Shown piece after piece: positions 22,995 to 40,543 of a stretch of DNA of 55,698 nucleotides (its first letter is position 1; every line of letters starts with the position of its first letter). Under the pieces are notes generated by a model. It was given only the letters and a program-made list of their open reading frames with translations. It made no database searches and was not told the origin of the DNA. The position numbers and the translations under genes were made by a program. Source of the stretch: Patescibacteria group bacterium (GTDB lineage Bacteria; Patescibacteriota; Minisyncoccia; Phycocordibacterales; Phycocordibacteraceae); NCBI GenBank assembly GCA_038057055.1, contig JBBUDY010000017.1, positions 1 through 55,698 on the forward strand, in the 5' to 3' direction.

Positions 22995-24321
22995 CAGATA
23001 CACTTTTACTCTTCAGGGTAATCTTGCCGCGCAACTGTTCAAGCAACTGGCGCTTTTCCTCAATAGTTCCTTCCTCGAGTAGATACTTCGCGTATCGCTT
23101 AACATCCATCTCGAGCGCTTTTTCCTTTTCTTTTACGCCCAGTACTTGTGAGCGCAGTTTGTTGAATCGCGCAACCTCCTTATCTATGAGATGTCGTGCG
23201 CCAAGGCGGTCTATCTCTATTCCGTCGATGATTTCCGATAGTTGCTCTATGAGATTGTCTTCGCGGATATATGGATTCTTGCACCGTCGGTCTTGGGCGC
23301 GAGTGCATAAGTAATATCTGTAAATCTTTGTCGTTCCAAGCATCTTTACGAATTTCTCTTTATCCATGCAGGTGACGCCGGAACCGCACTCACCACAGGT
23401 CATCAAGCGAGTGAAGGCAAATTCACCGACTCGCTTTTTTGGATTCGTTTCCGATACGATTTTCTCTCGCACCAGTTCGAAGAGTTCTCGAGTGATAAGC
23501 GCTTCATGCTTGCCGACATACCAGTTGCCGCTTCCGCGCGGGTACTCGAAGACCCCGCAATAAAATGGATTTTTTAGGAGCTCGTAGAGAGTACCGATAC
23601 TCATATTTTTTCCGCTTCGGGTCGAGAATTTAACTTCTTCTCGTAGCCAGTGGTATATCTTCACTCCGCTCCACCGCTCTTTCCCAACCTTCTCGAATAT
23701 CATCTTCACGATAGGGGAGCGTATCGGGTCGAGTAGGTACTCGCATTTGTGGTCCGACCTCGTGTCATTGAGATATCCGACTGGTGCCCAGCCGGGAAGC
23801 ATACCCATCTCGGCTCGTGTTCGCAGACCGCGCTTCACGTTGATACTCTTATTATCGTTTTCAAGCTTCGCCTGCGAGCAAAGGATCATCAGTAGGAACT
23901 TTTCATTCGGATTGTTCGAGAATTTCTGACTATACGTCTGTATCTGCACGAGCACTCCTGCATCCATCATGTCGACGACCCGTCCGAGGTCGCCCGCGTT
24001 ACGGCTGATGCGGTCGGCCGCCCACGTCAGTATCCCGTTGAACTTCCCGGCACGCATTTCGTTGATCATCTCGTTGAATACCGGCCGCTGGCTAGCCTCT
24101 TTTGCCGAGTGGCTCTCGCGTTTGACCTCTACCACCTCAAGACCGTCCCGAGCCGCCAGCGCTGACATCTCCTTGATCTGCGAATCGATGGACAGCGCCT
24201 GCTGTTCATCTTGCTCAGTGCTCTTTCTGGCGTAGAGGCAGTACCGCACCTTTACCGCCTCCTTGGCCTCTGGTTTAAGCCCTAGAACCCTATCTGTGCC
24301 CTCAAATACCGCCTTATTCAT
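22987..24321 (-). CDS. Large serine recombinase (resolvase catalytic domain, recombinase domain, zinc ribbon and coiled coil)
   Basis: Catalytic context YCLYARKSTEQDEQ. ADRISRN motif. Cys cluster CGECGSG...CTRAQDRRC. C-terminal coiled coil. Confidence 0.85.
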   Translation of the reverse strand: MNKAVFEGTDRVLGLKPEAKEAVKVRYCLYARKSTEQDEQQALSIDSQIKEMSALAARDGLEVVEVKRESHSAKEASQRPVFNEMINEMRAGKFNGILTWAADRISRNAGDLGRVVDMMDAGVLVQIQTYSQKFSNNPNEKFLLMILCSQAKLENDNKSINVKRGLRTRAEMGMLPGWAPVGYLNDTRSDHKCEYLLDPIRSPIVKMIFEKVGKERWSGVKIYHWLREEVKFSTRSGKNMSIGTLYELLKNPFYCGVFEYPRGSGNWYVGKHEALITRELFELVREKIVSETNPKKRVGEFAFTRLMTCGECGSGVTCMDKEKFVKMLGTTKIYRYYLCTRAQDRRCKNPYIREDNLIEQLSEIIDGIEIDRLGARHLIDKEVARFNKLRSQVLGVKEKEKALEMDVKRYAKYLLEEGTIEEKRQLLEQLRGKITLKSKSVSVI

Positions 24322-24390: not shown

Positions 24391-25050
24391 CTACTTTTTC
24401 TTATAATTCTTCAAGAATTCTTCGATATTGACCCCATCGCGTTTAAGTTCGCGTTCTAGTTCCTTTTTGAATTTCTCTTGTGGCTTGCCGGTGCCCCAGT
24501 CTGAGATACGCTCTTCGTCCGACATTACATGTGCTGAGCTATGTATCTCATCGTGCGTTTCGTTTTGTTCTGCGCTCTTGCTTGCTAAGAATTTCTCTTT
24601 TAGCTCTTCACTTCGAATGAATGTACCCAACATTCCCGATATACGACAAGCCCTGACGATTTGTTCACGTTGTTCATCAGGAAGTATTCCATCGTTATCA
24701 ACTAAATGATATTCGTGTCGAATGCGTTCGGCGAACCACACATGATTATTCTTAAGCCAGAATATGAGCGCGGTCAGATGGCCTTCCTGGATCTTTTTTA
24801 ATAGCCCTGATATGGCAATGTCGTTGAGATACTCGCGACCAGTGTTGATTGCCTTGTTGGCGAGACCTTTGAATTCCTTATCTTCCGAGAGCCACTTATA
24901 GTATGTTGAACGACCGACCCCGACACGTTCGCAAGCGAGTTGCACGATGCAACATTTTGTCAGATGTTCAAGAACAGCAAGTTTCTGTTCGGCGGTCTTT
25001 ACAGAAAGCGTTGCCAGACGCTTTTTCTTAGCCAACTGCTTTCCAGTCAT
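24391..25050 (-). CDS. HTH protein resembling phage small-terminase/Homeodomain-like regulators
   Basis: ACERVGVGRSTYYKWLSEDKEFKGLANKAI...ALIFWLKN follows the TerS-like HTH pattern. Function is uncertain: regulator, recombination directionality factor or TerS. Confidence 0.4.
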   Translation of the reverse strand: MTGKQLAKKKRLATLSVKTAEQKLAVLEHLTKCCIVQLACERVGVGRSTYYKWLSEDKEFKGLANKAINTGREYLNDIAISGLLKKIQEGHLTALIFWLKNNHVWFAERIRHEYHLVDNDGILPDEQREQIVRACRISGMLGTFIRSEELKEKFLASKSAEQNETHDEIHSSAHVMSDEERISDWGTGKPQEKFKKELERELKRDGVNIEEFLKNYKKK

Positions 25051-25053: not shown

Positions 25054-26376
25054 CTAGGAAATTTTCTTCGCCTTTTTTCCGGTTGTCTTCTCCCAGCGGG
25101 CAATAATTACTGCGGTATATATCTCGCTCTTTTCCATCACGTAACAGCGACGACCTAGCTTATTAGCTGCAATCAGCGTTGAGCCACTACCCCCAAAGGG
25201 TTCAAGAACAAGATCACCGCGTTTCGTCAGTACCTTGAGATACGGCAGGAGAATTTCAACAGGTTTAGTTCCGAAGATGATTCCCTGGCCAGACGACTTC
25301 TCGTCTGCCGCAACAAAGTCTACGAAGTCAGTTGGGCAATACTTCTTGCCTTTCCCAGGTCCCTCCCAGTGCGGACTACCAGAGGTTGCGAAGAGCGCGG
25401 TCTCATACTGCTCTTGAAAGAGAGGATCGTCTTCTGGCTCATCGTTTAGTACGACTTCACCTGAGGTACCAACAAGCGCTACATCGTGCTTGCTAAAGAA
25501 TTTGTACTTGGCAGAAAAACCTTGTACGCGGTTGCTCAGATGCCATACAATGGTGTTGCGGTAGCGCCAATGCTTCTCGAGCGCGTTCCATATAGTTCTC
25601 AAATTCTTAGGGTTCTCATAGACGATGATTGAGAAGTCAGTTTTTTGCGCCTGAGCTACATTGGCCATCCAGAGGTCGGTAAAGTTCTCTGGTAGTGAGT
25701 CGGTGCCGAGATACTTGCGGTCTCGCTTTAAGCCAAAACCTTCAGTCGGCTTGCCGTTTTTCTTTTTGCCCCGAAGGTAATCAAGAATATAGGGCGGATC
25801 TGTGAAGCACATATCTGCCTTCTCTCCGCCCATTAGAGCGAGCATATCAGCCTCGATCATGCTGTCACCACAACGAAGACGCGAACCATCCAAGTCGAAC
25901 ATATCACCCTTCTTAATCGTTACCTCGCTGATGTTTAATTTTTCCAATTCACGCTTAAGGTCAAAATGCTCGGGTGTAGTTTCAACCTCGAATATTTCAT
26001 CAAGCTCAATTGTGTCGAAACCTACATCTTTCAGGAAATCCTCGCCGAAATCCTTAAGTATTGCAAGGTCAAATTCTCCGAGATTCTTGTTCAAACGAAT
26101 GTTTAATTCTTTTTCGCGTTCTATCTCCGGTATATTCACATACACTACAGGCATTTCTTTGAGCTCAAGATCTTTGGCGACTTTCAGACGGAAGTGTCCA
26201 CCTACAACTACATTCTCGCGACCTTCGGCTTTATTGCACACGATAGGGTCCACCATACCGAAACGCTGCAAGCTCTCCTTCAATGCAGCAATTTGTGATT
26301 CGTTCCACTTACGGGGATTATATTCCGACGGTTTCAATTCACTGATTGGCACATACACGATATTTAAGTTTTCCAT
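25054..26376 (-). CDS. ParB-like nuclease domain fused to an N6A/N4C DNA methyltransferase
   Basis: N-terminal ParB box (LKPSEYNPRKW). Motif IV TDPPY. C-terminal AdoMet motif LEPFGGSGSTLIAA (beta-class order). Confidence 0.85.
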   Translation of the reverse strand: MENLNIVYVPISELKPSEYNPRKWNESQIAALKESLQRFGMVDPIVCNKAEGRENVVVGGHFRLKVAKDLELKEMPVVYVNIPEIEREKELNIRLNKNLGEFDLAILKDFGEDFLKDVGFDTIELDEIFEVETTPEHFDLKRELEKLNISEVTIKKGDMFDLDGSRLRCGDSMIEADMLALMGGEKADMCFTDPPYILDYLRGKKKNGKPTEGFGLKRDRKYLGTDSLPENFTDLWMANVAQAQKTDFSIIVYENPKNLRTIWNALEKHWRYRNTIVWHLSNRVQGFSAKYKFFSKHDVALVGTSGEVVLNDEPEDDPLFQEQYETALFATSGSPHWEGPGKGKKYCPTDFVDFVAADEKSSGQGIIFGTKPVEILLPYLKVLTKRGDLVLEPFGGSGSTLIAANKLGRRCYVMEKSEIYTAVIIARWEKTTGKKAKKIS

Positions 26377-26851: not shown

Positions 26852-27844
26852 ATGAAAACCGTCCAACCCGACCAAGCGGGTCATCTTGGATTTTTAGATC
26901 AATACGCAACCGACAGCGAAATATTTTCGCTTCGTTCTGGTAAGCAAATTTCTATACCAAAGTATTTCCTTGACCTTAAGAAATGGGAAGGAGTACCGAT
27001 TGCCAACACATATAACAATAAAGCGGTCATCGATTGGAACGGTGAGCCGGTATTCGCCGAGTTAGCCGTTCTGCGACTATTCCAGTCGAACGGATGGAAA
27101 GGCGTGTGGGTCGATTCGTATCGGAGAAAATTCAGAGTCGGTCTGCCAGACGTGGTCGATCCGATAGAATTACCGGAAGCACAAACACAGCTATTAAATA
27201 CTCTTCGAGAAAAGACTGGACGTTTCGGAGGATGTTGGGACTTACTGCTGTGGAAGGGCGACGACACACTTTTCGTCGAATTAAAGCGACGAGGGAAAGA
27301 TAGAATACAGATCACCCAAACTGACTGGCTTTCAGTGGCTCTCGAGTCGGGTCTGGCTAAAGATAACTTTGCGATCGTCGAATGGGATTTTTCTTTGCCG
27401 AACCGTCTTATATTTGAGTATCCAGAGGACAGAAAATTCTTTGTCGATCTACTATCTGGCGGAGACGAAGAAAAATTCGACAAAGAATTTTCCGATTACT
27501 TCGATTTCAACCACCAGGCTATCAAGCGTTGGGTGTTTAATAAAACGAGCAAGAAAGTACTAGCAGAGCTTATTGAGAAATATGGTGGTAAGTGTCAGCT
27601 TCGGATTCATCCCGAGTGCAGTACGACCGGTGTGTGGCATCCGGATCATATAATCCCGCTCGCATCCGCAGAATTACATAGGAAACTGAGACATCTCACA
27701 AACAATTCGGATGGCTCTAAGCCCGAGTCGGTGAGCTACGGATCAAACCACCCGAAAAATCTCACATTAGCCTGCGAGAAGTGCAATTTGCGCAAAAAAC
27801 ACCGCATAATCTGGCCAGTACCTAAAGATGAAGAAAGTTGCTAA
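26852..27844 (+). CDS. VRR-NUC (PD-(D/E)xK) nuclease domain fused to a C-terminal HNH endonuclease
   Basis: GCWDLLLW...TLFVELKRRGKDRIQITQTDW matches the VRR-NUC pattern. HPDHIIP...NLTLACEKCNLRKKH matches HNH. Confidence 0.7.
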   Translation: MKTVQPDQAGHLGFLDQYATDSEIFSLRSGKQISIPKYFLDLKKWEGVPIANTYNNKAVIDWNGEPVFAELAVLRLFQSNGWKGVWVDSYRRKFRVGLPDVVDPIELPEAQTQLLNTLREKTGRFGGCWDLLLWKGDDTLFVELKRRGKDRIQITQTDWLSVALESGLAKDNFAIVEWDFSLPNRLIFEYPEDRKFFVDLLSGGDEEKFDKEFSDYFDFNHQAIKRWVFNKTSKKVLAELIEKYGGKCQLRIHPECSTTGVWHPDHIIPLASAELHRKLRHLTNNSDGSKPESVSYGSNHPKNLTLACEKCNLRKKHRIIWPVPKDEESC

Positions 27845-30086
27845 AATCAAGGTAATGCAATTGTCAGACAACGAAAAACGTGATGCCATAAAATACCTTG
27901 AAGCTGGGAAGCCACTCCCAGAGAAATACCGCTTTCTGCTGTTCGGTGAGACCCAAGAAGTCGAGCTTCTTTGGAATGGGAAAACAAACGAAGTGACAAA
28001 TGTCGTCCTGCCTTTCCAAGTCATTGAACAAATTGATGAACCGAGGAGTAATGAGAAATTTGGCACTACTGATTCTCTTTTTGATACAACGGGCAGACAA
28101 ATAACTGGCTGGACGAATAAGCTAATCTGGGGAGATAACAAGCTTATCCTCTCTTCTTTAAAGAATGGTCCTTTACGGAAGGAGATAGAAGCACACGGCG
28201 GCTTGAAGTTGATCTATATAGACCCGCCTTTTGATGTGGGGGCTGATTTTTCAATGGATATAAAAATTGGCGATGGAGAAGATGAAGAAAGCTTTACTAA
28301 AAAGCCGTCGGTCATAGAAGAAATCGCGTATCGTGATACTTGGGGCAAGGGGGCTGATAGCTTTATCGCGATGATCTATGAACGCCTGAAGCTCATGCAT
28401 GACCTGCTTGCAGAAGACGGAAGCATTTATGTGCATTGTGATTGGAGAGTCTCGAGTTATATGAGGCTTGTGTTGAATGAAATATTTGGATTGGATAATT
28501 TTATTGCAGAAATAATATGGAAAAGATCCGACAGCCACAACGACTCTAAGACCATAGGTGCCGTTGACGACAGAATTCTTTTTTATAGCAAGGGGGATAA
28601 CTTCATATTCAACAAGCAGTACGTACCAATGACAAGCGAAGTAATTGATGCTTGGTACAAAAAAGATGAGAATGGAAAGTTGTATAAGTTGGAAAATACT
28701 CTAGCCCCCGGTGGTAGAGGACCGATTTATGATTGGCATGGAGTAACTCGTGCTTGGCGTTATACGAAAGAAAACATGAAGAAACTTGAAGACGAGGGCA
28801 AGCTTTACCATACAAAAACAGGCTATCCTAAAAAGATTGTTTACCTCGAAGAGAGTAAGGGCGTACCTATAAATACCATTTGGACTGACTTGAGATTGGT
28901 AAATCGAACTTCTCATGAACGTTTAGACTACCCTACACAAAAGCCTGAAAATCTACTTGAGAGAATAATTACAATGTCGACTGGTGAAGGCGACCTGATT
29001 GCAGATTTTTTCTGCGGTTCCGGGACTACTCTTTCTGTTGCGGAGAAGCTGAACAGAAAATGGATCGGTTCTGATCTCGGAAAGTTTGGAATACACACAG
29101 CGAGGAAGCGACTTATAGGAGTGCAGAGAGAATTAAAGAAAGCAGGAAAAGATTTCCGTGCTTTTGAGATTTGGAATGTTGGTAGATATGAAAGAGAAAA
29201 TTTCCTCGCAGTGAATGATGATTTACGCGCAGAAGAAAAGGCCAAGCAAGCAGTGAGAAAAGAGAAGGAGTTCGTTAAGCTCATCATTTCGGCGTATAAG
29301 GCCGAACCAGTAGATTCCTTCGTAAACATGGTTGGTAAAAAAAGAGATCGCTTGGTGGTTGTGGGACCTATCAATGCACCAGTCTCATCTAAATTGGTGC
29401 AGGACATTGTTGCCGAATGTAAGAAGAAAAATATTACTAAAATCGATGTGCTCGGATTCGACTATGAGATGGGTCTTGATTTCGGAGAGTATAAAAGTCA
29501 AGGAATTGATATTGCGTTTATGATTATTCCGAGGGAAGTTTTTGATAAAAAGGCGGTTGAGAAGGGACAGGTGAAGTTTTACGATGTTGCATTCATCGAA
29601 GCGAAGCCGATAATTAAAGGAAAGGGTAAAGGCAAGGAGCTCTCGATCGAACTTTCTGATTTCTCTGTATTCTATAATCAAGACGATTCAGGCGAAGTAG
29701 CAGAAACTCTTCGCCCCGGTGGAGCTAAGGTAGTCGTGGAAAACGGACAGGTCGTAAAAATATCGAAAGATAAAACAACGGAGCTGATTTCAAAAGAGGT
29801 TTTGACGAAAAAGTGGAGCGACTGGATTGATTATTGGGCGGTGGATTTTGATTTTGCGAGTAGAAAAGAAATCATCAAGGTCATAGAGAATGATGAAGAA
29901 AAAGAAGTTTGGACTGGCGACTATATTTTTGACAACGAATGGCAAAGCTTCCGCACAAAGAAGAACAGGAACCTTGAACTTATTTCCGTGGCTAAGGAGG
30001 TGCCGAAAGGGACTTATAAAGTCGCGGTAAAGGTCGTGGATATTTTCGGTAATGACACAACGAAGGTGTTGGAAGTAAAAATATAG
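27828..30086 (+). CDS. mod: Type III restriction-modification methyltransferase (Mod)
   Basis: Motif IV IDPPFDV is followed far downstream by motif I DFFCGSGTT (beta-class order). About 750 aa. Lies directly upstream of Res. Confidence 0.85.
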   Translation: MKKVAKIKVMQLSDNEKRDAIKYLEAGKPLPEKYRFLLFGETQEVELLWNGKTNEVTNVVLPFQVIEQIDEPRSNEKFGTTDSLFDTTGRQITGWTNKLIWGDNKLILSSLKNGPLRKEIEAHGGLKLIYIDPPFDVGADFSMDIKIGDGEDEESFTKKPSVIEEIAYRDTWGKGADSFIAMIYERLKLMHDLLAEDGSIYVHCDWRVSSYMRLVLNEIFGLDNFIAEIIWKRSDSHNDSKTIGAVDDRILFYSKGDNFIFNKQYVPMTSEVIDAWYKKDENGKLYKLENTLAPGGRGPIYDWHGVTRAWRYTKENMKKLEDEGKLYHTKTGYPKKIVYLEESKGVPINTIWTDLRLVNRTSHERLDYPTQKPENLLERIITMSTGEGDLIADFFCGSGTTLSVAEKLNRKWIGSDLGKFGIHTARKRLIGVQRELKKAGKDFRAFEIWNVGRYERENFLAVNDDLRAEEKAKQAVRKEKEFVKLIISAYKAEPVDSFVNMVGKKRDRLVVVGPINAPVSSKLVQDIVAECKKKNITKIDVLGFDYEMGLDFGEYKSQGIDIAFMIIPREVFDKKAVEKGQVKFYDVAFIEAKPIIKGKGKGKELSIELSDFSVFYNQDDSGEVAETLRPGGAKVVVENGQVVKISKDKTTELISKEVLTKKWSDWIDYWAVDFDFASRKEIIKVIENDEEKEVWTGDYIFDNEWQSFRTKKNRNLELISVAKEVPKGTYKVAVKVVDIFGNDTTKVLEVKI

Positions 30087-30088: not shown

Positions 30089-32779
30089 ATGGCCCTCCCT
30101 AAAGATTTTCCAAGAGACCCATATGCGGTACTAGATCCGGGCATTCGCTGGTTTCCAGCTGACGAGGATTTAAGAGAGAAGGGCTTTGATAAACTCATCC
30201 CTCCACTTGTCGCTGATCTCCGCAAGAAGATAAAGGAGTGGAGGGATAAAGACTATGAAGGAGCTAGTGAGACCTCGAAGGCGCTCTTGAACTGGTGGTT
30301 CAAGGAAGAACATATTTTGTATGACCAACACGGTGCGTCATTTCATTTCAGGTATTATTTCGCTCAAAGAGAAGCGTTAGAGACCGTCATCTGGCTCTAT
30401 GAGGTTGCCAAGGTGAAGGATAAATACGACCTCATTCGCTATAACTCGACTGGTGTACTAAGTCCACAAATGTTTACAGAAGAGTGGCTACGCTTCGTGA
30501 TTAAGATGGCCACAGGCGCAGGTAAGACTAAGGTTATGAGCCTTGTTGTGGCATGGGCGTATTTCCATAAGAAATATGAGAAAGATTCCAAACTCGCAAA
30601 GAACTTTCTTTTGATAACGCCGAATGTCATCGTCTTCGAGAGAATCAAGAACGATTTCGCTGGTCTGAAGATATTCTTCAGCGACCCTGTTCTGCCAGAA
30701 AACGGATACCAGGGTCAAAATTGGCAGGATGATTTTCAAGTCACTTTGCACCTACAAGATGATTTGAGGAATGTTTCAGATACTGGAAATATATTCCTCA
30801 CGAATATACACAGAGTTTTTGAGAACGATGTAAAAGAAGTGGGTCCGGAAGACGAAGACACCTCGGTTTATTTCTTAGGAAATAAACCCGTTACAAAGAC
30901 GAATGATTCTACTGTTGATCTCGGAATGATTGTCAGAGATATAGACGAGCTTATTGTTCTGAACGACGAGGCGCACCATCTGCATGACGACAAATCCGCG
31001 TGGGTAAAATCCATTCAGGATATAGATAATCGGTTGAAGCAGAAGGGATCCGGTCTAGCTCTACAGTTGGATGTTACAGCAACACCGAAGAAAAATGATG
31101 GATCTATTTTTGTTCAGACGATTTCCGACTATCCGCTCGTTGAGGCTATCCATCAACGAGTAGTGAAAAATCCGGTCGTTCCAGATGCAGCGAGTAGAGG
31201 AAAACTCAAAGAGAATCAGAGCGCATTATTTAGTGAGAAATACAGAGACTACATAAATCTTGGCATCGAAGAGTGGCGGAAGACATACGAAACGCTAAAG
31301 CCAATGGGCAAGAAGTCGATTCTTTTTATCATGACGGATGATACGAAGAATTGCGACGAAGTGGCTGAATATATTGAAACGAGCTTTGCGGATTTGAAGG
31401 GTGCTGTTCTAACTATTCACACCAATAAGAGTGGCGAGATTTCGGAGAATGTATTGGGGAAAAATAAAGATGAGTTAACCATACTCAGACAACAAGCGAA
31501 CGATATAGATAGCTGGGAGAGCCCATTCAAGGTGATCGTATCCGTGATGATGCTGAAAGAAGGGTGGGATGTGAAGAATGTCACAACGATTGTTGGACTC
31601 CGACCGTATGCGGCCGACTCGAAGATCCTACCTGAACAGACACTCGGTCGCGGTCTTCGCCGAATGTTCTTCGGCAGAGATGATGTCGAGGAATATGTGA
31701 GTGTTGTTGGTACTCCCGCATTTATGGATTTCGTCGAGTCAATCAACGGCGAGGGAGTGATTCTAGAGAAGAAGGCTATGGGTACCGGCACAAAACCGAT
31801 TACGCCTATGGTCATCGAGGTCGACAAGGATAATCCAAAGAAAGATATAGAGAAGCTAGACATTGAGATCCCAGTGATGTCTCCGAGGATACAACGAGAG
31901 TATAAAAATCTTGCAGAGCTGAATGTCTCTAATTTTGGAAATGAGAAAGTAAAAGTGAAGACATTCTCCGAGGAAGAGAAAAGAGAAATCGTGTTTAAGG
32001 ATGTGGTTGATGAGAAGACACACCATACGACCGTGCTAACGGGGGATATCGAGCCGGATTACCAAAGTGTTATCGGCTTTTTCACGCAAGCTGTGATGAG
32101 AGATCTAAGGTTATTTGGTTGCTACGATATTTTGTTCGGTAAGGTAAAGGAATTCGTTCAAGGCCATATGTTTGATCGGCCGGTGAATCTGTCAGACCTG
32201 AATACTTTGAGGAATCTATCTGAAATAGAATATATACGCCTCATTAAGAGCTCATTCAAAAAAGCGATCAATGAACTAACTGTTCAGGACAGCGGAGATA
32301 CGGAAATCAAAAACTACATAAAAATCAGCGAGGCACGGCCATTCGTTGTGAATGACAAGTCTTATCTAATCCCAAAAAAATCAGTCTTCAATAAAATTGT
32401 TGGGGATAGCAATTTTGAGCTTGCCTTTGCTGATTTCCTCGAGAATTGCGATGACGTGATATCTTTTGCAAAGAACTTTGAGAATAAAGAAGCCACTGCG
32501 CTCAGGATCGAGTATAAAAACTCTGAAGGATCTATCGCTAATTATTATCCAGATTTTTTCGTCAAAAAAGACGACAAAACTGTGTACATAATTGAAACGA
32601 AGGGTCGTGAGGAGGAAGACGATAAGTTGAAGTTCCAAAGACTGCAAAAATGGTGCGAAGACGTCAATGCTCGCCAAAGCAGGACAATGTATAAGGCACT
32701 CTACATAAAACAGGAGGAATGGGAAAAAGATAAGCTAAAGAATTTTGATGAGGTCGTTAGAGTATTTAATTCTAAATAA
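30089..32779 (+). CDS. res: Type III restriction enzyme Res subunit (SF2 helicase plus C-terminal PD-(D/E)xK nuclease)
   Basis: Motif I MATGAGKTKV, motif II NDEAHH, motif VI QTLGRGLR. C-terminal YYPDFFV...YIIETKGRE. Confidence 0.88.
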   Translation: MALPKDFPRDPYAVLDPGIRWFPADEDLREKGFDKLIPPLVADLRKKIKEWRDKDYEGASETSKALLNWWFKEEHILYDQHGASFHFRYYFAQREALETVIWLYEVAKVKDKYDLIRYNSTGVLSPQMFTEEWLRFVIKMATGAGKTKVMSLVVAWAYFHKKYEKDSKLAKNFLLITPNVIVFERIKNDFAGLKIFFSDPVLPENGYQGQNWQDDFQVTLHLQDDLRNVSDTGNIFLTNIHRVFENDVKEVGPEDEDTSVYFLGNKPVTKTNDSTVDLGMIVRDIDELIVLNDEAHHLHDDKSAWVKSIQDIDNRLKQKGSGLALQLDVTATPKKNDGSIFVQTISDYPLVEAIHQRVVKNPVVPDAASRGKLKENQSALFSEKYRDYINLGIEEWRKTYETLKPMGKKSILFIMTDDTKNCDEVAEYIETSFADLKGAVLTIHTNKSGEISENVLGKNKDELTILRQQANDIDSWESPFKVIVSVMMLKEGWDVKNVTTIVGLRPYAADSKILPEQTLGRGLRRMFFGRDDVEEYVSVVGTPAFMDFVESINGEGVILEKKAMGTGTKPITPMVIEVDKDNPKKDIEKLDIEIPVMSPRIQREYKNLAELNVSNFGNEKVKVKTFSEEEKREIVFKDVVDEKTHHTTVLTGDIEPDYQSVIGFFTQAVMRDLRLFGCYDILFGKVKEFVQGHMFDRPVNLSDLNTLRNLSEIEYIRLIKSSFKKAINELTVQDSGDTEIKNYIKISEARPFVVNDKSYLIPKKSVFNKIVGDSNFELAFADFLENCDDVISFAKNFENKEATALRIEYKNSEGSIANYYPDFFVKKDDKTVYIIETKGREEEDDKLKFQRLQKWCEDVNARQSRTMYKALYIKQEEWEKDKLKNFDEVVRVFNSK

Positions 32780-35700
32780 TGTGGCTACCTTATTACCGAA
32801 AGACGACAAGGGTTACTCGGTAAACTTAGATGTAAATAACCCCAGAAGGGACGAGATTTGTGACTTTCTAGATTCCTTCAATGCACTTGAGAAGTTCTGC
32901 GAAGTCAGGCCTTCAATTTTATTGAAAGGTGGCTGGTATGCAATGCAGAGGGAGAATAGAATCCAAAATCTGGATTGGATGGCACAATCAGCCCACTCAT
33001 TTAGGGAGATACATTACGGCATTCTAGACAGTAAGACTTTGATTTTTAAGACGAAGCGGTTTCTCATTTTGAATGCAATAAAGTTCTTCAACTACAAAAC
33101 TAATAACATTCCAAAAACTAGGAAGGATAAAATCTCAGACTCGCTAAAGACTTATGTTGCAGATGAAGCCAAACGGCAAGAAATATCGACAGCAATAAAT
33201 AAAGTACATATTGCCTTTACAAAAATAGCTCACCATTTTAAGGAGCGAGACAGTCTCAAGGACACCTTGAAGATATTTGTATTTCTTAAAATTACCCAGA
33301 GTAATATAGCCGCGATTGAACCGGAGAGCTTCGAGAGTCTCGTAGATATATTTGAGAATCTGATTCTTGATATAAAGCCAAGAGGTCTGACCTCCCATAA
33401 AATAATCGACGACATACTCCTGAACAAGAATTTCGACGAGAAGATAATCAGATCGATTTGTCTTTCGGGTGGCAATCCAGACACTAAGCGATACTTTTTC
33501 TCTAAGGCGGATGAGATTTGGCTGAAATGGCTCTGGGAGAAAGGGTTACTGGACGACTTAAAGAAACCCGCTTTAGATACATCTAAGTATTCGTATCGTC
33601 TACCAGAGCTTGAATATTTAACTCGTATGGTAGGGAAAGAGCCCAAAATGGTTACCGAGATAATGAACTCAGTTACTATCTCAAAGGAAACTTTTAATCC
33701 AGAAGTGGTCGATAGATTTACTTGGATCATCAGTTTACTTCCTGTCGAGCAAACAAAGATTTTGTTTCCAAAGATTTTGCGTGAAAGCTGGGTGCAACTC
33801 ATGTCCCCATTTCATAGATCAGGATACGAATATATAAAAATTGTTGAAAAGTTAAAAGAGTCTGGAGACCCTGATGCATTAATCGGTCTGGCAAAAATTA
33901 TTCTGACACCACGCTCCAAAGAGGAAGTTCAGGCAATAAACGGTTATATATCATCAGATAAATTATTCTATCTTAACGACATAACAGAGACCGGCCTCTT
34001 TGATCTGCTTTTGGATACCAGAAATACAGAGAAAGAAAAGACACTTGCGTTAGCACTCGACGTGCTAGGTAAGGTAGTTACCAACGGCAAGGACAGAGAA
34101 GTTGTTTTTAAGGAATCGGAGCCTTTTTATTTGCTTGATGTAGATATTTTCACGATTGAAGTAAATAACGAAAGAAAATCATATACGAAAGATGATATTG
34201 AGAATCTCATTGCTCTGGCAAAGAAACTTATTGATGAGCTGTTCTCTTCAGCTTGTGATAACCCAGCTGAGGTTAGAAGATTGTACGATACCAACATTTC
34301 TGGCCTTCCTGACAGCAGGACTTTGTACAAGCTCAGACTGTACACGGCCACACGATGTCCATCTGTCTTCAGGCAAGAAATTAAAACCCTGCTGTTTAGA
34401 GTTTTCGAGGTTGGAGAACGGTACTTTGAAATTGAAGGTGGGGCGGAATATCATAGTGCATTAATTGCCGGTTTTAGTGCACTTGATGCAGATACAGCTC
34501 AGCGAGAGTATGTCGCGAAAGTATTTGAGTATTTTGGAGCAAAACTTGAAAATGAGGATAAGGAGAAATGGAGGCGAGAGGCCGGACTTGAAATCGTTAC
34601 TTATATTAAAACTTATTTAACGAAGGAAGAAATTGAACAATCAGAAAAGCTGTTTGGAAAACTTCCAGAGGGTAAGAAGTTATCCCCACACCCAGAAGCA
34701 ACTATGGGTGAGGCAGGAATCGTGGCCCACCGATCTCCAATAAATGTCAGTGAATTCTCCGTTGAACAAATTGTTGAACACCTTAAAACTGACTGGTCCC
34801 CTACAGTACTTAAAGAACAGTACGGTGGGGATGATTTCCTTAGTCCTCGTGGAACTGAAGGACTCGGCGATGCGTTGAAAGACGATGTCAAAAAGCGACT
34901 AGATTCGTATCTAGAGAAAATAAACGATTTCTTCGACAGAGATAACATTGCGCCCCACTATGTTTATTCGGTGATTCGTGGAATCGAGGAAATGTTAAGA
35001 AACAAAGAGAAGATTTCTTTAGAGCAGGCCGGTAAGCTCGTAGATTTCTTTGAATTCGTTAAAAACGAGGGCTTGAAGACTCCTTTCAAGAAGGCTGACG
35101 ATAAAGAGTGGCTAGCAGACTGGATTGAAGTTCATAAAGTTATTGTAGACGCATTGCTGTATCTTACGGAAAACAAGGATTTAAAGGTGTCACTACATTC
35201 GGCATATCGAGACAAAATCCGCGACATAATTTCGTATCTACTAACTATTGAGAGTAGCCCGTCTAAAGAGCACGAAAAACCAGAATATGGCGAACCGTAC
35301 CATGTGGCAATCAATTCAGTACGTGGCCGTGCGTACGAAGCATTTGTTATCTTTACTGAGAATGACGGAAAGGCTCTTGCTGAAGATGTAAAAAGTATTT
35401 ACAGACAGTCTCTTAACGATGAATCAATCGCGGTACACTTTGTCATCGGGCGTTATCTAGCTACTTTCTATTTTCGAGATAAAGAATTTATAAAAGAGAC
35501 ACTCCCTGAAATCTTCCCGAAGGATGATCCCGTAAAAAAGGACATGTATTTAGCCTCGTGGGAGGGATACCTATCAAACACCTTATATGACAAGCTCTTT
35601 GCAGAGTTCAAGAACTATTACGAACATGCCATCATGCTGGACCCATCCGTATATACAGAGAGGAAATATACTAGGAGTTTAGATGAATTACTCGCGACAC

Positions 35701-36329
35701 ACCTTGCCCTCGCTTATGCTAATCTAGACCTTAAAATAGGTGACCCATTGTTTGATCTATTCTGGAAGACTCCCAACGCAACGAGACATTATGAGTTTGC
35801 ATCTTTTCTTGGACGAAGTTGTTTAACTCGAGATAGTGCTGGTGATGAATGGTTAAAGGAAAATAAGGTAAGCAAAGAAAAGCTTATTGAATTTTGGAAT
35901 TGGATGCTGGCCACAGATATCCCGATTGATGCGAAGGCTTTTGCAGGGTTTGGTTTCTGGGTGAATCCAGATAAGGAAGTCATCGATGAAAAAATCATTG
36001 TTAAAAATTTAGTTGCCACACTCAAGAAGTCCAATGGAGAAATTGATTGGGACTACGGTTTAATGCAACGTCTTAAAGTATTTGCAGGAATTGATCCCGT
36101 AAATACATTAGAAATCATAAAGAATTATCTCCTTCTTGATGGCGAACTTAATCCTCACAGGAGGTCTCCTTTGTTTAGTCTTGAGAATGAAATCAAAGAA
36201 GCTCTCGTCATCATCTATAAAGATCCAACACTGAAGAGTGCTGTCAAAGATTTAGTCGATATCCTGATTGAGAAAGGCAGTAGCTCATTCTGGGGGTTAA
36301 AGGACGTTCTTGGGGGGATAAGTAAATGA
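32745..36329 (+). CDS. Orphan 1194-aa protein, mostly predicted alpha-helical, with no recognisable catalytic or NTPase motif
   Basis: Uninterrupted ORF. The ATG at 32745 overlaps the res end by 35 nt. An alternative GTG at 32781 lies 1 nt after the res stop. No GxxxxGK[ST] motif found by eye. Confidence 0.6.
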   Translation: MMRSLEYLILNNVATLLPKDDKGYSVNLDVNNPRRDEICDFLDSFNALEKFCEVRPSILLKGGWYAMQRENRIQNLDWMAQSAHSFREIHYGILDSKTLIFKTKRFLILNAIKFFNYKTNNIPKTRKDKISDSLKTYVADEAKRQEISTAINKVHIAFTKIAHHFKERDSLKDTLKIFVFLKITQSNIAAIEPESFESLVDIFENLILDIKPRGLTSHKIIDDILLNKNFDEKIIRSICLSGGNPDTKRYFFSKADEIWLKWLWEKGLLDDLKKPALDTSKYSYRLPELEYLTRMVGKEPKMVTEIMNSVTISKETFNPEVVDRFTWIISLLPVEQTKILFPKILRESWVQLMSPFHRSGYEYIKIVEKLKESGDPDALIGLAKIILTPRSKEEVQAINGYISSDKLFYLNDITETGLFDLLLDTRNTEKEKTLALALDVLGKVVTNGKDREVVFKESEPFYLLDVDIFTIEVNNERKSYTKDDIENLIALAKKLIDELFSSACDNPAEVRRLYDTNISGLPDSRTLYKLRLYTATRCPSVFRQEIKTLLFRVFEVGERYFEIEGGAEYHSALIAGFSALDADTAQREYVAKVFEYFGAKLENEDKEKWRREAGLEIVTYIKTYLTKEEIEQSEKLFGKLPEGKKLSPHPEATMGEAGIVAHRSPINVSEFSVEQIVEHLKTDWSPTVLKEQYGGDDFLSPRGTEGLGDALKDDVKKRLDSYLEKINDFFDRDNIAPHYVYSVIRGIEEMLRNKEKISLEQAGKLVDFFEFVKNEGLKTPFKKADDKEWLADWIEVHKVIVDALLYLTENKDLKVSLHSAYRDKIRDIISYLLTIESSPSKEHEKPEYGEPYHVAINSVRGRAYEAFVIFTENDGKALAEDVKSIYRQSLNDESIAVHFVIGRYLATFYFRDKEFIKETLPEIFPKDDPVKKDMYLASWEGYLSNTLYDKLFAEFKNYYEHAIMLDPSVYTERKYTRSLDELLATHLALAYANLDLKIGDPLFDLFWKTPNATRHYEFASFLGRSCLTRDSAGDEWLKENKVSKEKLIEFWNWMLATDIPIDAKAFAGFGFWVNPDKEVIDEKIIVKNLVATLKKSNGEIDWDYGLMQRLKVFAGIDPVNTLEIIKNYLLLDGELNPHRRSPLFSLENEIKEALVIIYKDPTLKSAVKDLVDILIEKGSSSFWGLKDVLGGISK

Positions 36330-36330
36330 T

Positions 36331-36525
36331 ATGAACAATTTGGAGAACGAAATTAATAAGATGAAATCCTTAGCTTATAAGGGTCGATTTAGCATTTATT
36401 ATCAACCAGACGAGTGTCTGGTTAGAACCTATTTTAAAGATGGTAGTCAGCATAAAGAGATCGGAAAGACCCTCGAAGAAGCCATATCCAAAATGGTTAG
36501 ATTTCTGAAAAGTCAGTCACTGTAG
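36331..36525 (+). CDS. 64-aa hypothetical protein, coupled to the 1194-aa ORF
   Basis: The ATG lies 1 nt after the upstream stop. Base composition matches the upstream gene. Confidence 0.4.
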   Translation: MNNLENEINKMKSLAYKGRFSIYYQPDECLVRTYFKDGSQHKEIGKTLEEAISKMVRFLKSQSL

Positions 36526-36718
36526 ACACTTTCGCACTCCTTTTTATAGTGTCTATCGTGTCTATTGAAGGGTACAGTACCGCCGCCCTAGTTGGCCGAT
36601 CTAAAGCGAGCAAAAACCCTTCAAATCATTGGGAACCGACCCATACCGGCCCCCATCGACTAAGGGGGAAGGAAGGTGCCCAGAAAACCTTGTAACTCCC
36701 TATGGGTACGGGTACAGT

Positions 36719-36830
36719 ACCGGCCTGGGCAACACGGTTGTGACGCCAGGAACCAGTACCGTTCCCCATTGGGACCAGTACAGTACCGCCAGGCATCACG
36801 TAAGCAAAAGCCGCGAGAAGCTCGTTTTTC
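36719..36830 (+). repeat. att-like repeat copy C (right end of the island)
   Basis: ACCGGCCTGGGCAACACGG resembles the tRNA 3' end. The 86-nt block 36729-36814 matches copy B. Ends in a degenerate hairpin and T-run. Confidence 0.8.
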
Positions 36831-36850: not shown

Positions 36851-37252
36851 ATGACCCGCGAGGCATTTGAGAAATTAGTGCAAGAAGGCTTTCTTTTAAT
36901 ACCAGAAAGGTTTCGCGAGAAGATACAGAATGTCGCACTCCTCGTGGAGAACGAACCATCAGAAGACATACGAAAGTTGGAAGATCTTAAAGAGGATGAG
37001 ACACTCCTCGGGTTATATCGGGGCATACCCAATACCGTGCGCGGCGACACCTACGGTGTCGGAGAGACACTCCCGGACACCATTACGCTTTACCAATTGC
37101 CAATAGAAAAAGTGGCGCTCGAAGATGGAGAGGACGTCCGGAAAGTCATCGCCGAAACCATTTGGCATGAATACGCGCACTATTTCGGCATGGACGAAGA
37201 CGAAGTGCAGTTCCGCGAATCTATGCGAAACCCGGGAAGTAGTCGGTTTTGA
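36851..37252 (+). CDS. Small zinc metallopeptidase-like protein (COG3824/DUF1025 type)
   Basis: C-terminal HEYAHYFG (HExxH) motif. About 130 aa. Confidence 0.65.
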   Translation: MTREAFEKLVQEGFLLIPERFREKIQNVALLVENEPSEDIRKLEDLKEDETLLGLYRGIPNTVRGDTYGVGETLPDTITLYQLPIEKVALEDGEDVRKVIAETIWHEYAHYFGMDEDEVQFRESMRNPGSSRF

Positions 37253-37325
37253 TATTGAAGCGGAGTGAGTCAAATAAAAATACCCGCAGTGGCAAGGCCA
37301 CATACGGGTATTGAGTTGCTCGGTA

Positions 37326-38747
37326 CTACCGAGCGGCGCGTTCACGGATCTCAGCAAAGCTTTGATCCACGAGGAGTTCGCCGTCTTTGAATACCGGCAC
37401 CAGCTCGTTCTTGAGGCCGAGCTTTTCGGCTTCTTCTTCACGTACCGTGTAGTACACCCCGTCTTTGCAGACGAGCGCCAAACGACCGGCCTTGGAACGC
37501 TTGCCCGGGTCGGTGATGGGATCTTTCATTACATCCCGCCACGTCCCGTTCACTTCCGTCGCCGAGCACTTGAACGCGAACTTCTGCGTGTCGCGGTCCA
37601 TCTTTTGCAGAAGCCCGCCGCCCGAACCGAACGCGACATTGTCGGCAGACCAGCCAGCGATTTTCATCGCAACCAGCACTTTGTCGAGCATCTCGTAGTC
37701 AATGCCGTCGCCCTGGATGACACGCACTTTCGGATTGAGGACCTTGTAGCCCTTCTTGTTCACTTCATATCCGAACGCATCGCCCAAGATTTGGAGCACG
37801 CGCACCACGACATCGGGCGGATACCCGCTGTCAGGACGTACCACGAGCACACCATCGCGCGCCAGCACCGCTTCTTTGAGTTCTTTGCCCCAGATTTCGC
37901 GGCAAGCGTTGTAGATATCGTAGCTGTCAGAAACCACAGCGACGAGACCGGTCGGGAAGGCCTTCAGCATGTTTGCGTAGGCATCCTTCTCGTTCTCGTA
38001 TCCCCACGAGGTAATCGTGGAGTGTTCTGCGGCAGGAATTGAGAACCCTGCCATCGGCTCGCCGTAATACTTCCTGGCTACGCGGATGCCCTGGAAGGTG
38101 TCCGTGCCCTTGAAGCTGACCAAGTGCGCCGAGTCGCCGATGCCCGCGGATTCAACTGATGTTGACCCACGGAAACCGAAATCGTGCACTTTGAAGTCGA
38201 TGAGCGAGGTGTCGCCGGTCGCTTCAAGGTAGTTCAGCACCCGAAGGCGCATGTACCTGCTCTGTGTGGCGACCGTTGAGGGGTACCAGATCATCGAGAG
38301 CAGTGTTTCCACGTAGTTGGTCACCCACGGCAATTCCGGATCGGTATTCTCGACCGTCATCAGGACATTCCTTGCCGGCACATTGGTGCCTTCAGGAACG
38401 GCTTTGATGATAATCGGGAGCCGGCCGCCATGCACCGTGAGTATCCTGTCCCAACCTGCGCGGTTGTAGATGCTGTTCGTGCCGAAGTGCGCCTCAAAGT
38501 CGTCAGCCGCCTCGTCGACATTTTCAGGCGTTACGATGCGGCCGGAGAGATAGCGCTTCAGGTAGTACTGGAGACCGTAGAACGTTACTTCAGAGAATAC
38601 TCCACCGCGGCTCTCGAAGTACGAATGAATCTTCATCGTGCCGGGAGGGAGTTGGTTCCAGTGCGAGACCTTGTAGCTGTCGGAGAGTTCAACGGTGTTG
38701 ATTTCGCCGTTTGCGCCGATGCTCGGATTGCCTTTGTTCGCATTCAT
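37326..38747 (-). CDS. nadV: Nicotinamide phosphoribosyltransferase (NadV/NAMPT)
   Basis: About 470 aa. Motifs VSDSYD, VVRPDSG, IQGDGI and AFGSGGGLLQK are typical of NAMPT. Confidence 0.88.
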   Translation of the reverse strand: MNANKGNPSIGANGEINTVELSDSYKVSHWNQLPPGTMKIHSYFESRGGVFSEVTFYGLQYYLKRYLSGRIVTPENVDEAADDFEAHFGTNSIYNRAGWDRILTVHGGRLPIIIKAVPEGTNVPARNVLMTVENTDPELPWVTNYVETLLSMIWYPSTVATQSRYMRLRVLNYLEATGDTSLIDFKVHDFGFRGSTSVESAGIGDSAHLVSFKGTDTFQGIRVARKYYGEPMAGFSIPAAEHSTITSWGYENEKDAYANMLKAFPTGLVAVVSDSYDIYNACREIWGKELKEAVLARDGVLVVRPDSGYPPDVVVRVLQILGDAFGYEVNKKGYKVLNPKVRVIQGDGIDYEMLDKVLVAMKIAGWSADNVAFGSGGGLLQKMDRDTQKFAFKCSATEVNGTWRDVMKDPITDPGKRSKAGRLALVCKDGVYYTVREEEAEKLGLKNELVPVFKDGELLVDQSFAEIRERAAR

Positions 38748-38794
38748 GATGTTTCCTTTTCAGTGTGTGATGGGACCTGCAGATGATGTTGCAA

Positions 38795-39688
38795 TTACTT
38801 CTTGAGTACTTCGACGACTCGCTTGATGAGCGACCGGTGCGCTTCGACGATGTTGTTCGCATCAATCGAGAGCGAGTGCCATGCAACTCTTGCGAGGTCG
38901 TCTCCGGCGCGCGGCGCGCCGGCCATGTGGGTTGTGACGAAGAGAGCGGTCATAATCTTGTCGCGCTCTCGCTCATACCGCCAATCATTCACACGATACG
39001 AACCAGCGTAGGTAAGTTCGTGCGTCATGATGTTTCCGGCTTCTTCTTTGAGTTCCCGCTGGGCTGTCGCTTCGAGCGATGTGTCGCTCGGATCGACAAA
39101 CCCTCCGATGAGCCGCCACTGGTCGCCGTCCGTTTCCTTTTGTCCGAGAAGAATCTCGAGCGCCGGATACCGGACGACGGCAATATCGACCGTTTGGTAC
39201 GAGATTGCCGGCCGCAATTGTTGTGCCGCGATCATCCCCTTGCGAAAGGAAGGATTCCATTCGATTGGAGCTGATGCGCATGCACGCTCACTCGTTCCCG
39301 ATATTTCTGGTACCATCGGCACCACGACTATCGGTAGCTTGCCCGAGTAATGGGGGACGAAGCTGTCGCGAGAGGCGTAGAGCCTGATGTGTGCACCGGG
39401 GAACGTCTGTGCGAGAAGCGTGTCCAGTTTGTTTGACCAGACGGCATCGTCGGGGTGGTCGGAATGTTCGAGCACCACGACATCCGGAAATGATTCCCGG
39501 ATACCCTGCGCCCGTACCGGGTAGGGAAGGGGGTTGCGCTCCGTAGGGAGTGAGTCGCCCTTTCCGAGAACTACCGTAGTCACATCACACTCGCGTAGGG
39601 CCCACCGGATAAGGTGTTTGTGCCCTTCATGAAGTTCAGCAACCTGGAATCGTCCAACAACTACACCAACTGTTTTCAAGCTTTTCAT
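38795..39688 (-). CDS. nadM: Bifunctional NMN adenylyltransferase / Nudix hydrolase (NadM-Nudix)
   Basis: N-terminal GRFQVAELHEGH nucleotidyltransferase motif. C-terminal Nudix box GGFVDPSDTSLEATAQRELKEEAG. GGAGG RBS upstream. Confidence 0.85.
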   Translation of the reverse strand: MKSLKTVGVVVGRFQVAELHEGHKHLIRWALRECDVTTVVLGKGDSLPTERNPLPYPVRAQGIRESFPDVVVLEHSDHPDDAVWSNKLDTLLAQTFPGAHIRLYASRDSFVPHYSGKLPIVVVPMVPEISGTSERACASAPIEWNPSFRKGMIAAQQLRPAISYQTVDIAVVRYPALEILLGQKETDGDQWRLIGGFVDPSDTSLEATAQRELKEEAGNIMTHELTYAGSYRVNDWRYERERDKIMTALFVTTHMAGAPRAGDDLARVAWHSLSIDANNIVEAHRSLIKRVVEVLKK

Positions 39689-39728
39689 GTGTTCCTCCTC
39701 GTTTTCAAAGAACCGTTTCGGATAAAGA

Positions 39729-39749
39729 TTAGTGTACTAAGTACACTAA
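39729..39749. promoter_or_regulatory. 21-bp perfect palindrome TTAGTGTAC-TAA-GTACACTAA (NrtR operator candidate) upstream of nadM
   Basis: 9-3-9 inverted repeat containing a GT-N7-AC core, 41 nt upstream of the nadM start. Confidence 0.6.
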
Positions 39750-39792
39750 GTAAGGGTAAAAAATATATGGCTCCTACCCCTCTCTACCCACC

Positions 39793-39813
39793 TAAGTGTA
39801 TCTTATACACTAT
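39793..39813. promoter_or_regulatory. Second related palindrome TAAGTGTAT-CTT-ATACACTAT
   Basis: AGTGTAT/ATACACT inverted repeat with the same spacing and half-site family. Confidence 0.5.
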
Positions 39814-39850
39814 CACTTTTCCTGTCAATACCCCCTGTGGATATCGGGTT

Positions 39851-40543
39851 TTATAAAACTTCTACTTCCTTGACCTTATCAGAAGAAAAACGATAAAGTT
39901 GCGCGGGTCGAAACGCACCGCCAGTCCGTTTGTGGGGAAGGGGAGCGATGAAATGAAGCTTCAATATTTTCTTGCGGAAGTTCCTTTTATCAAGACTGGA
40001 GTGCAGGATGCTCTCATACGCATGTTCGAGTTCGGTGAGTGTGAATTCTTTTGGCATAAGCTTCCCGATGAGTGTTGTGTATGTTATGCGAGAACGCAGT
40101 CGGTCAATTGCCACAACCAACATCTGATCGTGGTCATAGGCAAGTCCTCTGACTTCGCTCACCGGGCTCCACCACGCATCGGACGTATCAAGTCGTTCTT
40201 TCGTAGAGAGTTTTTCCCACGGTGTGAGTGCGAGATACGCGACGGCGACCACGCGGCCGCGCGGGTCACGCTTGAGTTCACTAAAGGTGTACAACTGCTC
40301 AATGTAGATTTCTCTCGCATCGAGCAGACCCTTTGTCCGTACCAAACGCTTTGCGGCTTCCTCGGCCGTTTCCTTGGGGTCAATAAGACCGCCCGGCATA
40401 CCTCTACTGTTCGAGAAGTGGGGAGGACGTTGTACCTTGGTGAGGCGCACAAGGAGCTTGTTGTCGCGGATGGTGAACATAACAACATCTGCGGCGATGA
40501 TTGCAAATTGAAAGTGTTCCGGCACAGTATTTCTTTTCTTCAT
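39851..40543 (-). CDS. nrtR: NrtR-type transcriptional regulator (Nudix-like domain plus C-terminal winged helix)
   Basis: Degenerate Nudix box (GMPGGLIDPKETAEEAAKRLV) followed by a ~90-aa wHTH-like tail (LTELEHAYESIL...NFRKKILKL). Adjacent to nadM and nadV. Confidence 0.75.
   Translation of the reverse strand: MKKRNTVPEHFQFAIIAADVVMFTIRDNKLLVRLTKVQRPPHFSNSRGMPGGLIDPKETAEEAAKRLVRTKGLLDAREIYIEQLYTFSELKRDPRGRVVAVAYLALTPWEKLSTKERLDTSDAWWSPVSEVRGLAYDHDQMLVVAIDRLRSRITYTTLIGKLMPKEFTLTELEHAYESILHSSLDKRNFRKKILKLHFIAPLPHKRTGGAFRPAQLYRFSSDKVKEVEVL

Follow-up and report, generated by a model that had tools for sequence, protein, structure and literature searches.

Why should a type III restriction–modification (R-M) operon end in a third large gene whose product carries no familiar catalytic motif? 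The locus that raises this question lies in a 55,698-nt stretch of DNA from a Patescibacteria group bacterium (GenBank assembly GCA_038057055.1, contig JBBUDY010000017.1, forward strand; the whole stretch is referred to here as the window), in which the large gene follows immediately on res, the gene of the restriction subunit. The best reading of the comparative sequence evidence is that the large gene would be a mobile sensor–effector, a defense cassette co-expressed with R-M. Put more narrowly, that it encodes a two-part defense-island protein acting as a sensor–effector (abortive-infection or back-up) module is a proposal to which we give about an even chance. The initial annotation, made from the letters of the window, had already proposed an uncharacterized defense component; this part survives as the best reading, given the linkage to R-M genes and the match to no named family, whereas its portrayal of the protein as an orphan with a small downstream partner and a common origin with the R-M genes does not. 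The genes concerned and the two parts of the large protein are as follows.

27828–30086, + strand: type III methyltransferase subunit Mod, 752 aa (N6_N4_Mtase, 2e-41; PADLOC MTase_III, 3e-107)
30089–32779, + strand: type III restriction subunit Res, 896 aa (ResIII, 4e-17; RE_endonuc, 3e-4, just under the cut-off; PADLOC REase_III, 2e-23)
32781–36329, + strand: large gene, member of the solenoid family; likeliest product 1182 aa from GTG 32781
32781–33470, + strand: N-terminal all-alpha domain (N-domain), approximately aa 1–230, basic (isoelectric point (pI) 9.0), putative effector
33471–36329, + strand: HEAT-like alpha-solenoid, the family core, approximately 950 aa, acidic (pI 5.2), putative sensor or scaffold

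The upstream pair has the composition of a type III R-M system, with Mod as the methyltransferase and Res combining a superfamily 2 (SF2)-like ATPase with an endonuclease. Behind it, an open reading frame (ORF) of 1194 codons runs uninterrupted on the + strand from 32745 to 36329, as first described, and terminates in the TGA at 36327–36329. The ATG assigned to its first position is in fact a TTG, and the first ATG is at 32748; both are alternative in-frame starts that overlap res. The second start named at the time, an in-frame GTG at 32781, does lie 1 nt beyond the res stop codon TAA (32777–32779) and is the likeliest one, because the N-termini of homologues and the gene caller's version (P0001, 1182 aa, beginning at this GTG) agree on it. 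All residue numbers given here count from this position. Whichever start is used, the location of the large gene would allow its translation to be coupled to that of res, with a TAA-n-GTG arrangement suited to termination–reinitiation; the tight coupling first proposed is supported. That the ORF is real beyond chance is argued by full-length relatives with 31–80% identity in 79 genomes. Its GC content (40.0%) is similar to that of mod (41.3%) and res (42.6%), and together with the small ORF downstream (35.9%) these genes share the AT-rich composition noted before, against flanks of 50–57% GC.

The protein is far from an orphan. It has more than 136 close relatives with 33–80% identity, all annotated as hypothetical, and 144 matches among 185,579 species genomes (one genome per species, bacteria and archaea), while IMG/VR adds four relatives on viral contigs. 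A profile search against 1.84 billion representatives retrieved 3158 clusters (50% identity) at E ≤ 1e-3, none of them named, and 830 at E ≤ 1e-30. The hosts are mostly labeled as Patescibacteria, or candidate phyla radiation (CPR), lineages; a minority are metagenome-assembled genomes of Caldilineaceae, Nitrospirales, Omnitrophota, Poribacteria, Aminicenantia, and Auribacterota, and a search of the E. coli genome with the 11.5-kb region gave no match.

The failure to assign the large ORF to any named defense family is supported, as it matches no model in Pfam, NCBIfam, or PADLOC. In PADLOC-DB v2.0.0, neither it nor the small ORF finds a family at E ≤ 0.1, and none is found at E ≤ 0.01 for three partner proteins introduced below (the stand-alone N-domain of locus L015, one CHAT partner, and one partner with a hydrophobic segment). 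A motif scan agrees with these searches in supporting the reported absence of catalytic motifs: Walker A, DEAD/DEAH, HExxH, HD, HKD, and CxxC motifs are missing from the large protein, and the sequence RGLTSH is present. No description of the solenoid family was found in the literature, and it is credible that this is an undescribed, defense-associated family with a clear modular logic. A functional screen with a mean insert size of 2 kb has yielded LdgA and DdgA (Dallas), Patescibacteria-restricted defense genes of unknown fold (PMC12366544). Since inserts of that screen averaged 2 kb, the 3.5-kb large gene is an unlikely, though still possible, counterpart of either.

What kind of protein the family encodes is indicated by structure prediction. 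AlphaFold2, using a 63-sequence alignment, yields a confident all-alpha model of the whole protein (predicted local distance difference test (pLDDT) 87.7, predicted template-modeling score (pTM) 0.66), which supports the earlier picture of a helical-repeat scaffold with a distinct N-terminal region of about 230 aa. Foldseek relates the whole model to generic HEAT solenoids only among the structures of the PDB (karyopherins, CAND1, SF3B1, FANCI/D2, and mTOR; template-modeling scores of 0.1–0.28). Against viral models (BFVD) it returns nothing at E < 1e-3, which rules out a phage structural protein. Sequence searches of the PDB with full-length and N-domain profiles gave noise only (2ggs at E 0.33; MARVEL at E 0.004 on a coiled stretch). 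Within the solenoid, the motifs FNPEV.DRF, AINSVRGRA, and WEGYLSN are strongly conserved, and the polar residues E276, N306, E308, E556, N845, R848, and H974 are invariant. Over its entire length the window protein can be aligned with the family profile, at 31–80% identity; it keeps all invariant residues, and combines the solenoid motifs with a coupled N-terminal module, which makes it a member of the family.

The N-terminal part is modeled as a separate helical domain (pLDDT 84, pTM 0.80) with the invariant residues D65, W66, Q69, S73, R75, H151, and H152, of which R75 and H151, together with E76, are retained even in divergent stand-alone versions. A profile search with this domain for new architectures recovered 13 fragments only and was uninformative. 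RGLTSH, once considered a weak Rx4H candidate, is not the HEPN motif Rx4-6H: R201 varies (R/K/T/D/N/E) and only H206 is conserved, while a distance of 76 residues separates the invariant R75 from H151. Moreover, there is no HEPN match in Pfam and no HEPN structure among the Foldseek matches of the N-domain. Some likeness is seen to pP_pnuc_1 (PF18165), a predicted pPIWI-associating nuclease that is also all-alpha, locally on the helix with the pattern W..Q.A.S.RE. The window protein itself has no match to this family; 6 of 25 relatives score below its cut-off (12–16.5 bits, profile positions ~3–41), and the relative P0262 reaches 26.6 bits against a cut-off of 26.3, over positions 10–40 only (31 of 133). 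P0262 (1293 aa) and P0141 (1313 aa) each carry two tandem N-domains before the solenoid, an arrangement that recalls dimeric domains with a composite active site.

Across 84 non-redundant family loci, the connection between the two parts is variable. The N-domain is fused to the solenoid in 26 loci, including the window, and split from it in 58, in which profile position ~163 or ~180 marks the beginning of the solenoid. A co-directional gene lies upstream within 60 nt in 50 of the 58 split loci, typically with a spacing of −4 to +5 nt between partner and solenoid. The usual split partner is a homologue of the N-domain, and divergent cases were confirmed by hhalign (95.5%, E 1.6e-8). Four loci instead have a CHAT caspase-like protease as the partner (Pfam CHAT, best E 4.7e-8), and approximately nine have a small protein whose hydrophobic N-terminal segment is transmembrane-like as judged by eye only; hhalign finds these small proteins unrelated to the N-domain. 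On comparison of these loci, the solenoid comes with a tightly coupled N-terminal module, fused or encoded by an overlapping gene upstream, and this module is exchangeable, being a basic all-alpha domain, a CHAT protease, or a small hydrophobic-segment protein. By analogy, a core that is conserved while its enzymatic or membrane-type partners change would follow the pattern of sensor–effector immune proteins.

A second regularity concerns the genes further upstream, which were clustered by BLAST and named with Pfam and PADLOC. Of 67 loci, 34 have a co-directional R-M cluster among the four genes upstream, versus 6 of 66 downstream (Fisher p 1.4e-7), and homologues are repeatedly linked to R-M genes. 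Recurrent upstream genes on the same strand are N6_N4 Mod with ResIII Res, a type IIG methyltransferase–endonuclease (PADLOC REase_MTase_IIG, 4e-165) with or without an HKD plus SNF2 helicase, and an EcoRI-methylase with GmrSD/HNH, while TaqI, DpnI, DpnII, HaeII, Vsr, Type ISP, TIR+HD, and Cap15 each appear at a single locus. A census of upstream neighbors counts Eco57I/N6_Mtase 12 times and ResIII 8 times, besides Vsr, GmrSD/HNH, HaeII, DpnII, and Type_ISP_C. On the other side, when the nearest downstream gene of 100 aa or more was classified by Pfam at 75 loci, no methyltransferase was among the 25 commonest of 65 families, and the named matches are mostly housekeeping genes. A tightly coupled downstream gene is present in 32 loci; as a candidate for a conserved third component it fails, since the products are unrelated (transmembrane, PD-(D/E)xK-like, Mrr, SNase, and others) and form no family.

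The linkage does not follow a single operon by descent. Among 27 labeled cases, the nearest family relative has another R-M type in 18, including pairs that are 77–87% identical, which argues against plain vertical inheritance. The closest relative of the window protein, in locus L095 (80% amino acid identity), follows the C-terminus of a type-ISP-like methyltransferase, and nucleotide homology between the two loci starts approximately 58 nt inside the large gene. It is thus not borne out that the large ORF arrived together with mod and res. Instead, the swaps of R-M type between nearest relatives and the start of homology inside the large gene indicate a cassette that moves and ends up, or stays, at the 3′ end of R-M operons. 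Judged by gene order, the solenoid cassette is mobile and recurs co-directionally at this position in at least five R-M architectures.

These observations bear directly on the obvious alternative, in which the large protein is a true accessory subunit of R-M enzymes, its solenoid docking on Res/Mod or helicase–nuclease complexes to regulate, recruit, or protect them, for example in the control of self-restriction. The gene is always co-directional with the R-M genes and often overlaps the last of them, the R-M enzymes it accompanies most often are ATP-dependent translocases (type III Res, type IIG with HKD-SNF2, type ISP), and an acidic solenoid is typical of protein-binding scaffolds. The partner R-M types are mutually unrelated, however, and include plain type II and GmrSD enzymes; relatives as similar as 77–87% follow different types, about half of the loci lack R-M genes next to the solenoid gene, and the exchangeable CHAT and membrane-type partners resemble effectors rather than regulators. 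The mod and res genes of the window fit the canonical EcoP15I-like Mod2Res enzyme, and the large gene is placed for co-translation. Canonical type III R-M has two genes, though, and the third protein corresponds to no known subunit, its relatives being equally frequent after type IIG/HKD-SNF2 and other systems. Mod plus Res, or Res, lies upstream in only 10 of the 84 loci, so that a constant type III component is rejected; the remainder have type IIG, HKD-SNF2, EcoRI-methylase/GmrSD, or type II genes, or no R-M gene. We consider a role as an R-M subunit unlikely.

For a sensor–effector module, a mechanism can be outlined. The solenoid would bind a trigger, for example a protein of the phage or a molecule that results from restriction or inhibits it, and in the trigger-bound state would release or activate the N-terminal effector, which in the version found in the window might plausibly have a nuclease-like activity. 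The outcome would be a second layer of immunity co-expressed with restriction.

Among described systems, DSR2 is the closest architectural analogue, and the likeness is one of architecture only. DSR2 consists of an N-terminal SIR2 NADase and a C-terminal HEAT-repeat sensor that binds the phage tail tube protein (PMC11263360). As in the large protein, a single chain of ~1000–1200 aa encoded in a defense island has a small N-module, enzymatic in DSR2, followed by a long HEAT-like solenoid, and both would share the principle of using a repeat scaffold for sensing; a HEAT-like C-terminal fold is supported here by the AlphaFold2 model and Foldseek. In contrast to DSR2, the large protein has neither a SIR2 domain nor sequence similarity, and DSR2 is outside the top Foldseek matches; SIR2 is matched neither in Pfam or PADLOC nor by the N-domain model among SIR2 structures in Foldseek. 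The N-module in the window is a different, all-alpha domain, which other loci encode separately or replace, and the position behind R-M genes is not a DSR2 feature.

Conceptually, the closest analogues are PrrC, RloC, and the auxiliary effectors of bacteriophage exclusion (BREX)-like systems. PrrC (with EcoprrI), RloC, and BREX or R-M auxiliary effectors are likewise extra genes in or on R-M operons and are thought to act when restriction fails. Auxiliary or back-up effectors have been catalogued beside BREX and R-M-like systems (PMC12839542), HEPN domains occur in R-M contexts (PMC3710099), and the linkage of such effectors persists across unrelated R-M types, as it does in the solenoid family. 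The similarity ends at the level of the proteins: PrrC and RloC combine an ABC-ATPase head with an anticodon-nuclease domain, whereas the large protein lacks a Walker A motif, any match to an ATPase family, and a conserved HEPN Rx4-6H, and its fold is completely different. Membership in DSR2, PrrC/RloC, or the BREX-like auxiliary effectors is not supported.

If the large gene is a movable cassette, what carries it in the window? Its carrier is a 15.4-kb island, in which it comes last among the cargo genes and which is one of two tandem insertions at a tRNA-Met gene (2.2 kb between repeats A and B, 15.4 kb between B and C). In addition to the genes listed above, the insertions comprise the following features.

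18961–19120, + strand: tRNA-Met gene with direct repeat A (19008–19120), formed by the tRNA-Met 3′ end and downstream sequence; integration site
21273–21380, + strand: direct repeat B, a partial copy of the tRNA-Met 3′ end and downstream sequence; left boundary of the 15.4-kb island
21484–22994, + strand: cyclic-oligonucleotide-based antiphage signaling system (CBASS) pair with overlapping genes for an oligonucleotide cyclase and a Cap15-type two-transmembrane effector; left end of the 15.4-kb island
22987–24321, − strand: large serine recombinase; island backbone
24391–25050, − strand: HTH_Tnp_1_2 TerS-like protein; island backbone
25054–26376, − strand: ParB_N–N6_N4 methyltransferase; island backbone
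26852–27844, + strand: 330-aa ORF with weak HNH/VRR-NUC/PtuB-like signals, all below curated cut-offs
36331–36525, + strand: 64-aa ORF, ATG at 36331; mobile-island backbone
36526–36670, no strand: non-coding right-end segment of the island, conserved more than the genes; holds the first of three GTACAGTACCG copies
36735–36815, + strand: direct repeat C, near-identical to repeat B; right boundary of the island

The cargo of the 15.4-kb island includes the weakly HNH-like 330-aa ORF, mod, res, the large gene, and the small ORF. The 330-aa ORF overlaps the start of mod by 17 nt and may be a fourth gene of the R-M operon. The element GTACAGTACCG has five exact occurrences at the repeat sites, three of which lie within 220 nt at the right end (36572, 36712, 36778), and a further match with one mismatch at 42972 on the minus strand, where 0.56 are expected at that stringency. 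Just before repeat B, at 21188–21249, the 24-nt sequence AAAAGAGGGGATCGGAATCGAACT is directly repeated, with a near copy 38 nt from the first; the pair resembles reverse-complement remnants of a tRNA T-arm, and ARAGORN calls no tRNA there.

The right end of the island also bears on the 64-aa ORF. It begins 1 nt past the stop of the large ORF, as the annotation had it (TGA 36327–36329, ATG 36331), and is probably a real gene: its counterpart in L095 has 86% amino acid identity, with 12 synonymous and 9 non-synonymous codon changes, and homologues with 75–85% identity occur elsewhere, including loci L096–L098. It is nevertheless absent from 83 of the 84 non-redundant family loci and found only in L095. 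In L096–L098, a type-ISP-like methyltransferase, a UvrD helicase, and a 527-aa protein are followed by the small ORF and the non-coding end, without a solenoid gene. The non-coding segment is 95% identical to that of L095 and ~84% identical to those of L096–L098; it matches no Rfam family (a chance scaRNA hit at E 0.37 only) and is read as the island end rather than as a structured RNA. Because the small ORF and this end are present where the solenoid gene is missing, both are backbone parts of a family of mobile islands whose cargo can be exchanged, and the small protein is not a partner of the large one. The sister islands (L096, positions 1–5977; also L097 and L098) share with L095 both the left flank, with its type-ISP-like methyltransferase, and the right flank. 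Their 527-aa protein has no Pfam match on record and a possible PD-(D/E)xK motif (D...ITEVK). In L005 (13385–13780) and L010 (3635–4030), the place of the 64-aa ORF is taken by a conserved 131-aa protein within 3 nt of the relatives of the large gene (64–74% identity), with several predicted transmembrane segments (2–3 by hydropathy).

Just outside the defense island and immediately adjoining it, at 36851–40543, lies a nicotinamide adenine dinucleotide (NAD)-salvage cluster with a Zincin_1 protein, an NAMPT-type phosphoribosyltransferase, two NUDIX proteins, and an NrtR-type regulator. Another assembly of the same locus (L099, an ENA contig of 59,406 nt) has mod, res, and the large gene split into short ORFs, which are likely long-read frameshift errors rather than a sign of pseudogenization.

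Given this setting, the large protein might serve the mobile element itself, in the exclusion of competing elements, in anti-defense, or in maintenance, so that adjacency to R-M genes would reflect shared island cargo. The position in an island bounded by direct repeats at tRNA-Met agrees with such a role, as do serine recombinases adjoining 16 family loci and the backbone genes found elsewhere: a ParB-methyltransferase with a serine recombinase in L003, with a terminase and a faint AlpA-like match in L005, and with HTH_Tnp_1_2 and a terminase in L094. Four relatives are on IMG/VR contigs, and the slot of the large gene holds the UvrD and 527-aa cassette in sister islands. Shared cargo status, however, leaves the upstream/downstream asymmetry with complete R-M operons unexplained, the four viral contigs stand against 144 genome matches, and there is no viral structural analogue; moreover, defense encoded by an element would be the same molecular function anyway. 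We regard a function for the element alone as improbable.

Returning to the sensor–effector proposal, several points speak against it. The N-domain, its putative effector, has no fold match in the PDB (best Foldseek E 1.3) and lacks a recognized catalytic fold; the similarity to pP_pnuc_1, the sole family signal for this domain, is a weak lead rather than membership and, in the window protein, stays under the threshold. The cluster-based census finds no R-M gene at half of the loci, and some adjacency is expected by chance because Patescibacteria are R-M-rich. Further, the solenoid is better conserved than the N-domain (mean column identity 47% in the whole-protein alignment A1 versus 35% in the N-domain alignment A2), which is unusual for a sensor of fast-evolving phage proteins. 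Together with the many invariant polar residues, this hints that the ligand is conserved or that the core has an activity of its own.

The latter would make the solenoid a new all-alpha enzyme or a nucleic-acid-handling repeat protein, with the N-modules as its regulators or localizers. The unusual conservation of the core, with its sharp motifs and invariant polar residues, is what such a protein might display, and the hydrophobic N-terminal segments of some N-modules could localize the complex. We nevertheless think this very unlikely, as the core has no catalytic motif or fold match, its net acidic charge argues against nucleic-acid binding, and the CHAT partners are themselves enzymes. That the protein is a housekeeping or structural scaffold of CPR bacteria, set behind R-M genes by coincidence, is scarcely credible: most relatives do belong to Patescibacteria, with small genomes rich in R-M genes, but the distribution is patchy (144 matches in 185,579 species genomes), the loci lie in islands with recombinases and other defense genes, cassette shuffling and the asymmetry (p 1.4e-7) speak against coincidence, and it is the downstream neighbors, not the large gene, that are housekeeping genes.

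The diversity of partners, the asymmetry between upstream and downstream genes, and the swaps of effectors fit a sensor–effector module better than they fit an R-M subunit, a role for the mobile element, or adjacency by chance. The solenoid family displays hallmarks of immune modules: it resides in islands, is mobile, swaps its effector partners, and is tightly linked in operons to R-M systems of many kinds. In a more far-reaching version, which we put forward tentatively and hold possible rather than probable, the family would represent a new class of immune system, mostly of CPR/Patescibacteria, in which a solenoid “guard” wired to co-transcribed R-M senses some conserved outcome of infection or of failed restriction (anti-restriction proteins or the products of restriction, for instance) and unleashes exchangeable effectors, be it a membrane protein, a CHAT protease, or the Arg-Glu-His all-alpha domain, whose fold could be that of a new nuclease. 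Much of bacterial diversity belongs to CPR/Patescibacteria, yet, to our knowledge, few of their defense systems other than R-M are known. If confirmed, the solenoid family would contribute a novel sensor scaffold, perhaps also a novel effector fold, and it would provide a clean natural example of layered immunity, with R-M and its back-up transcribed as one unit.

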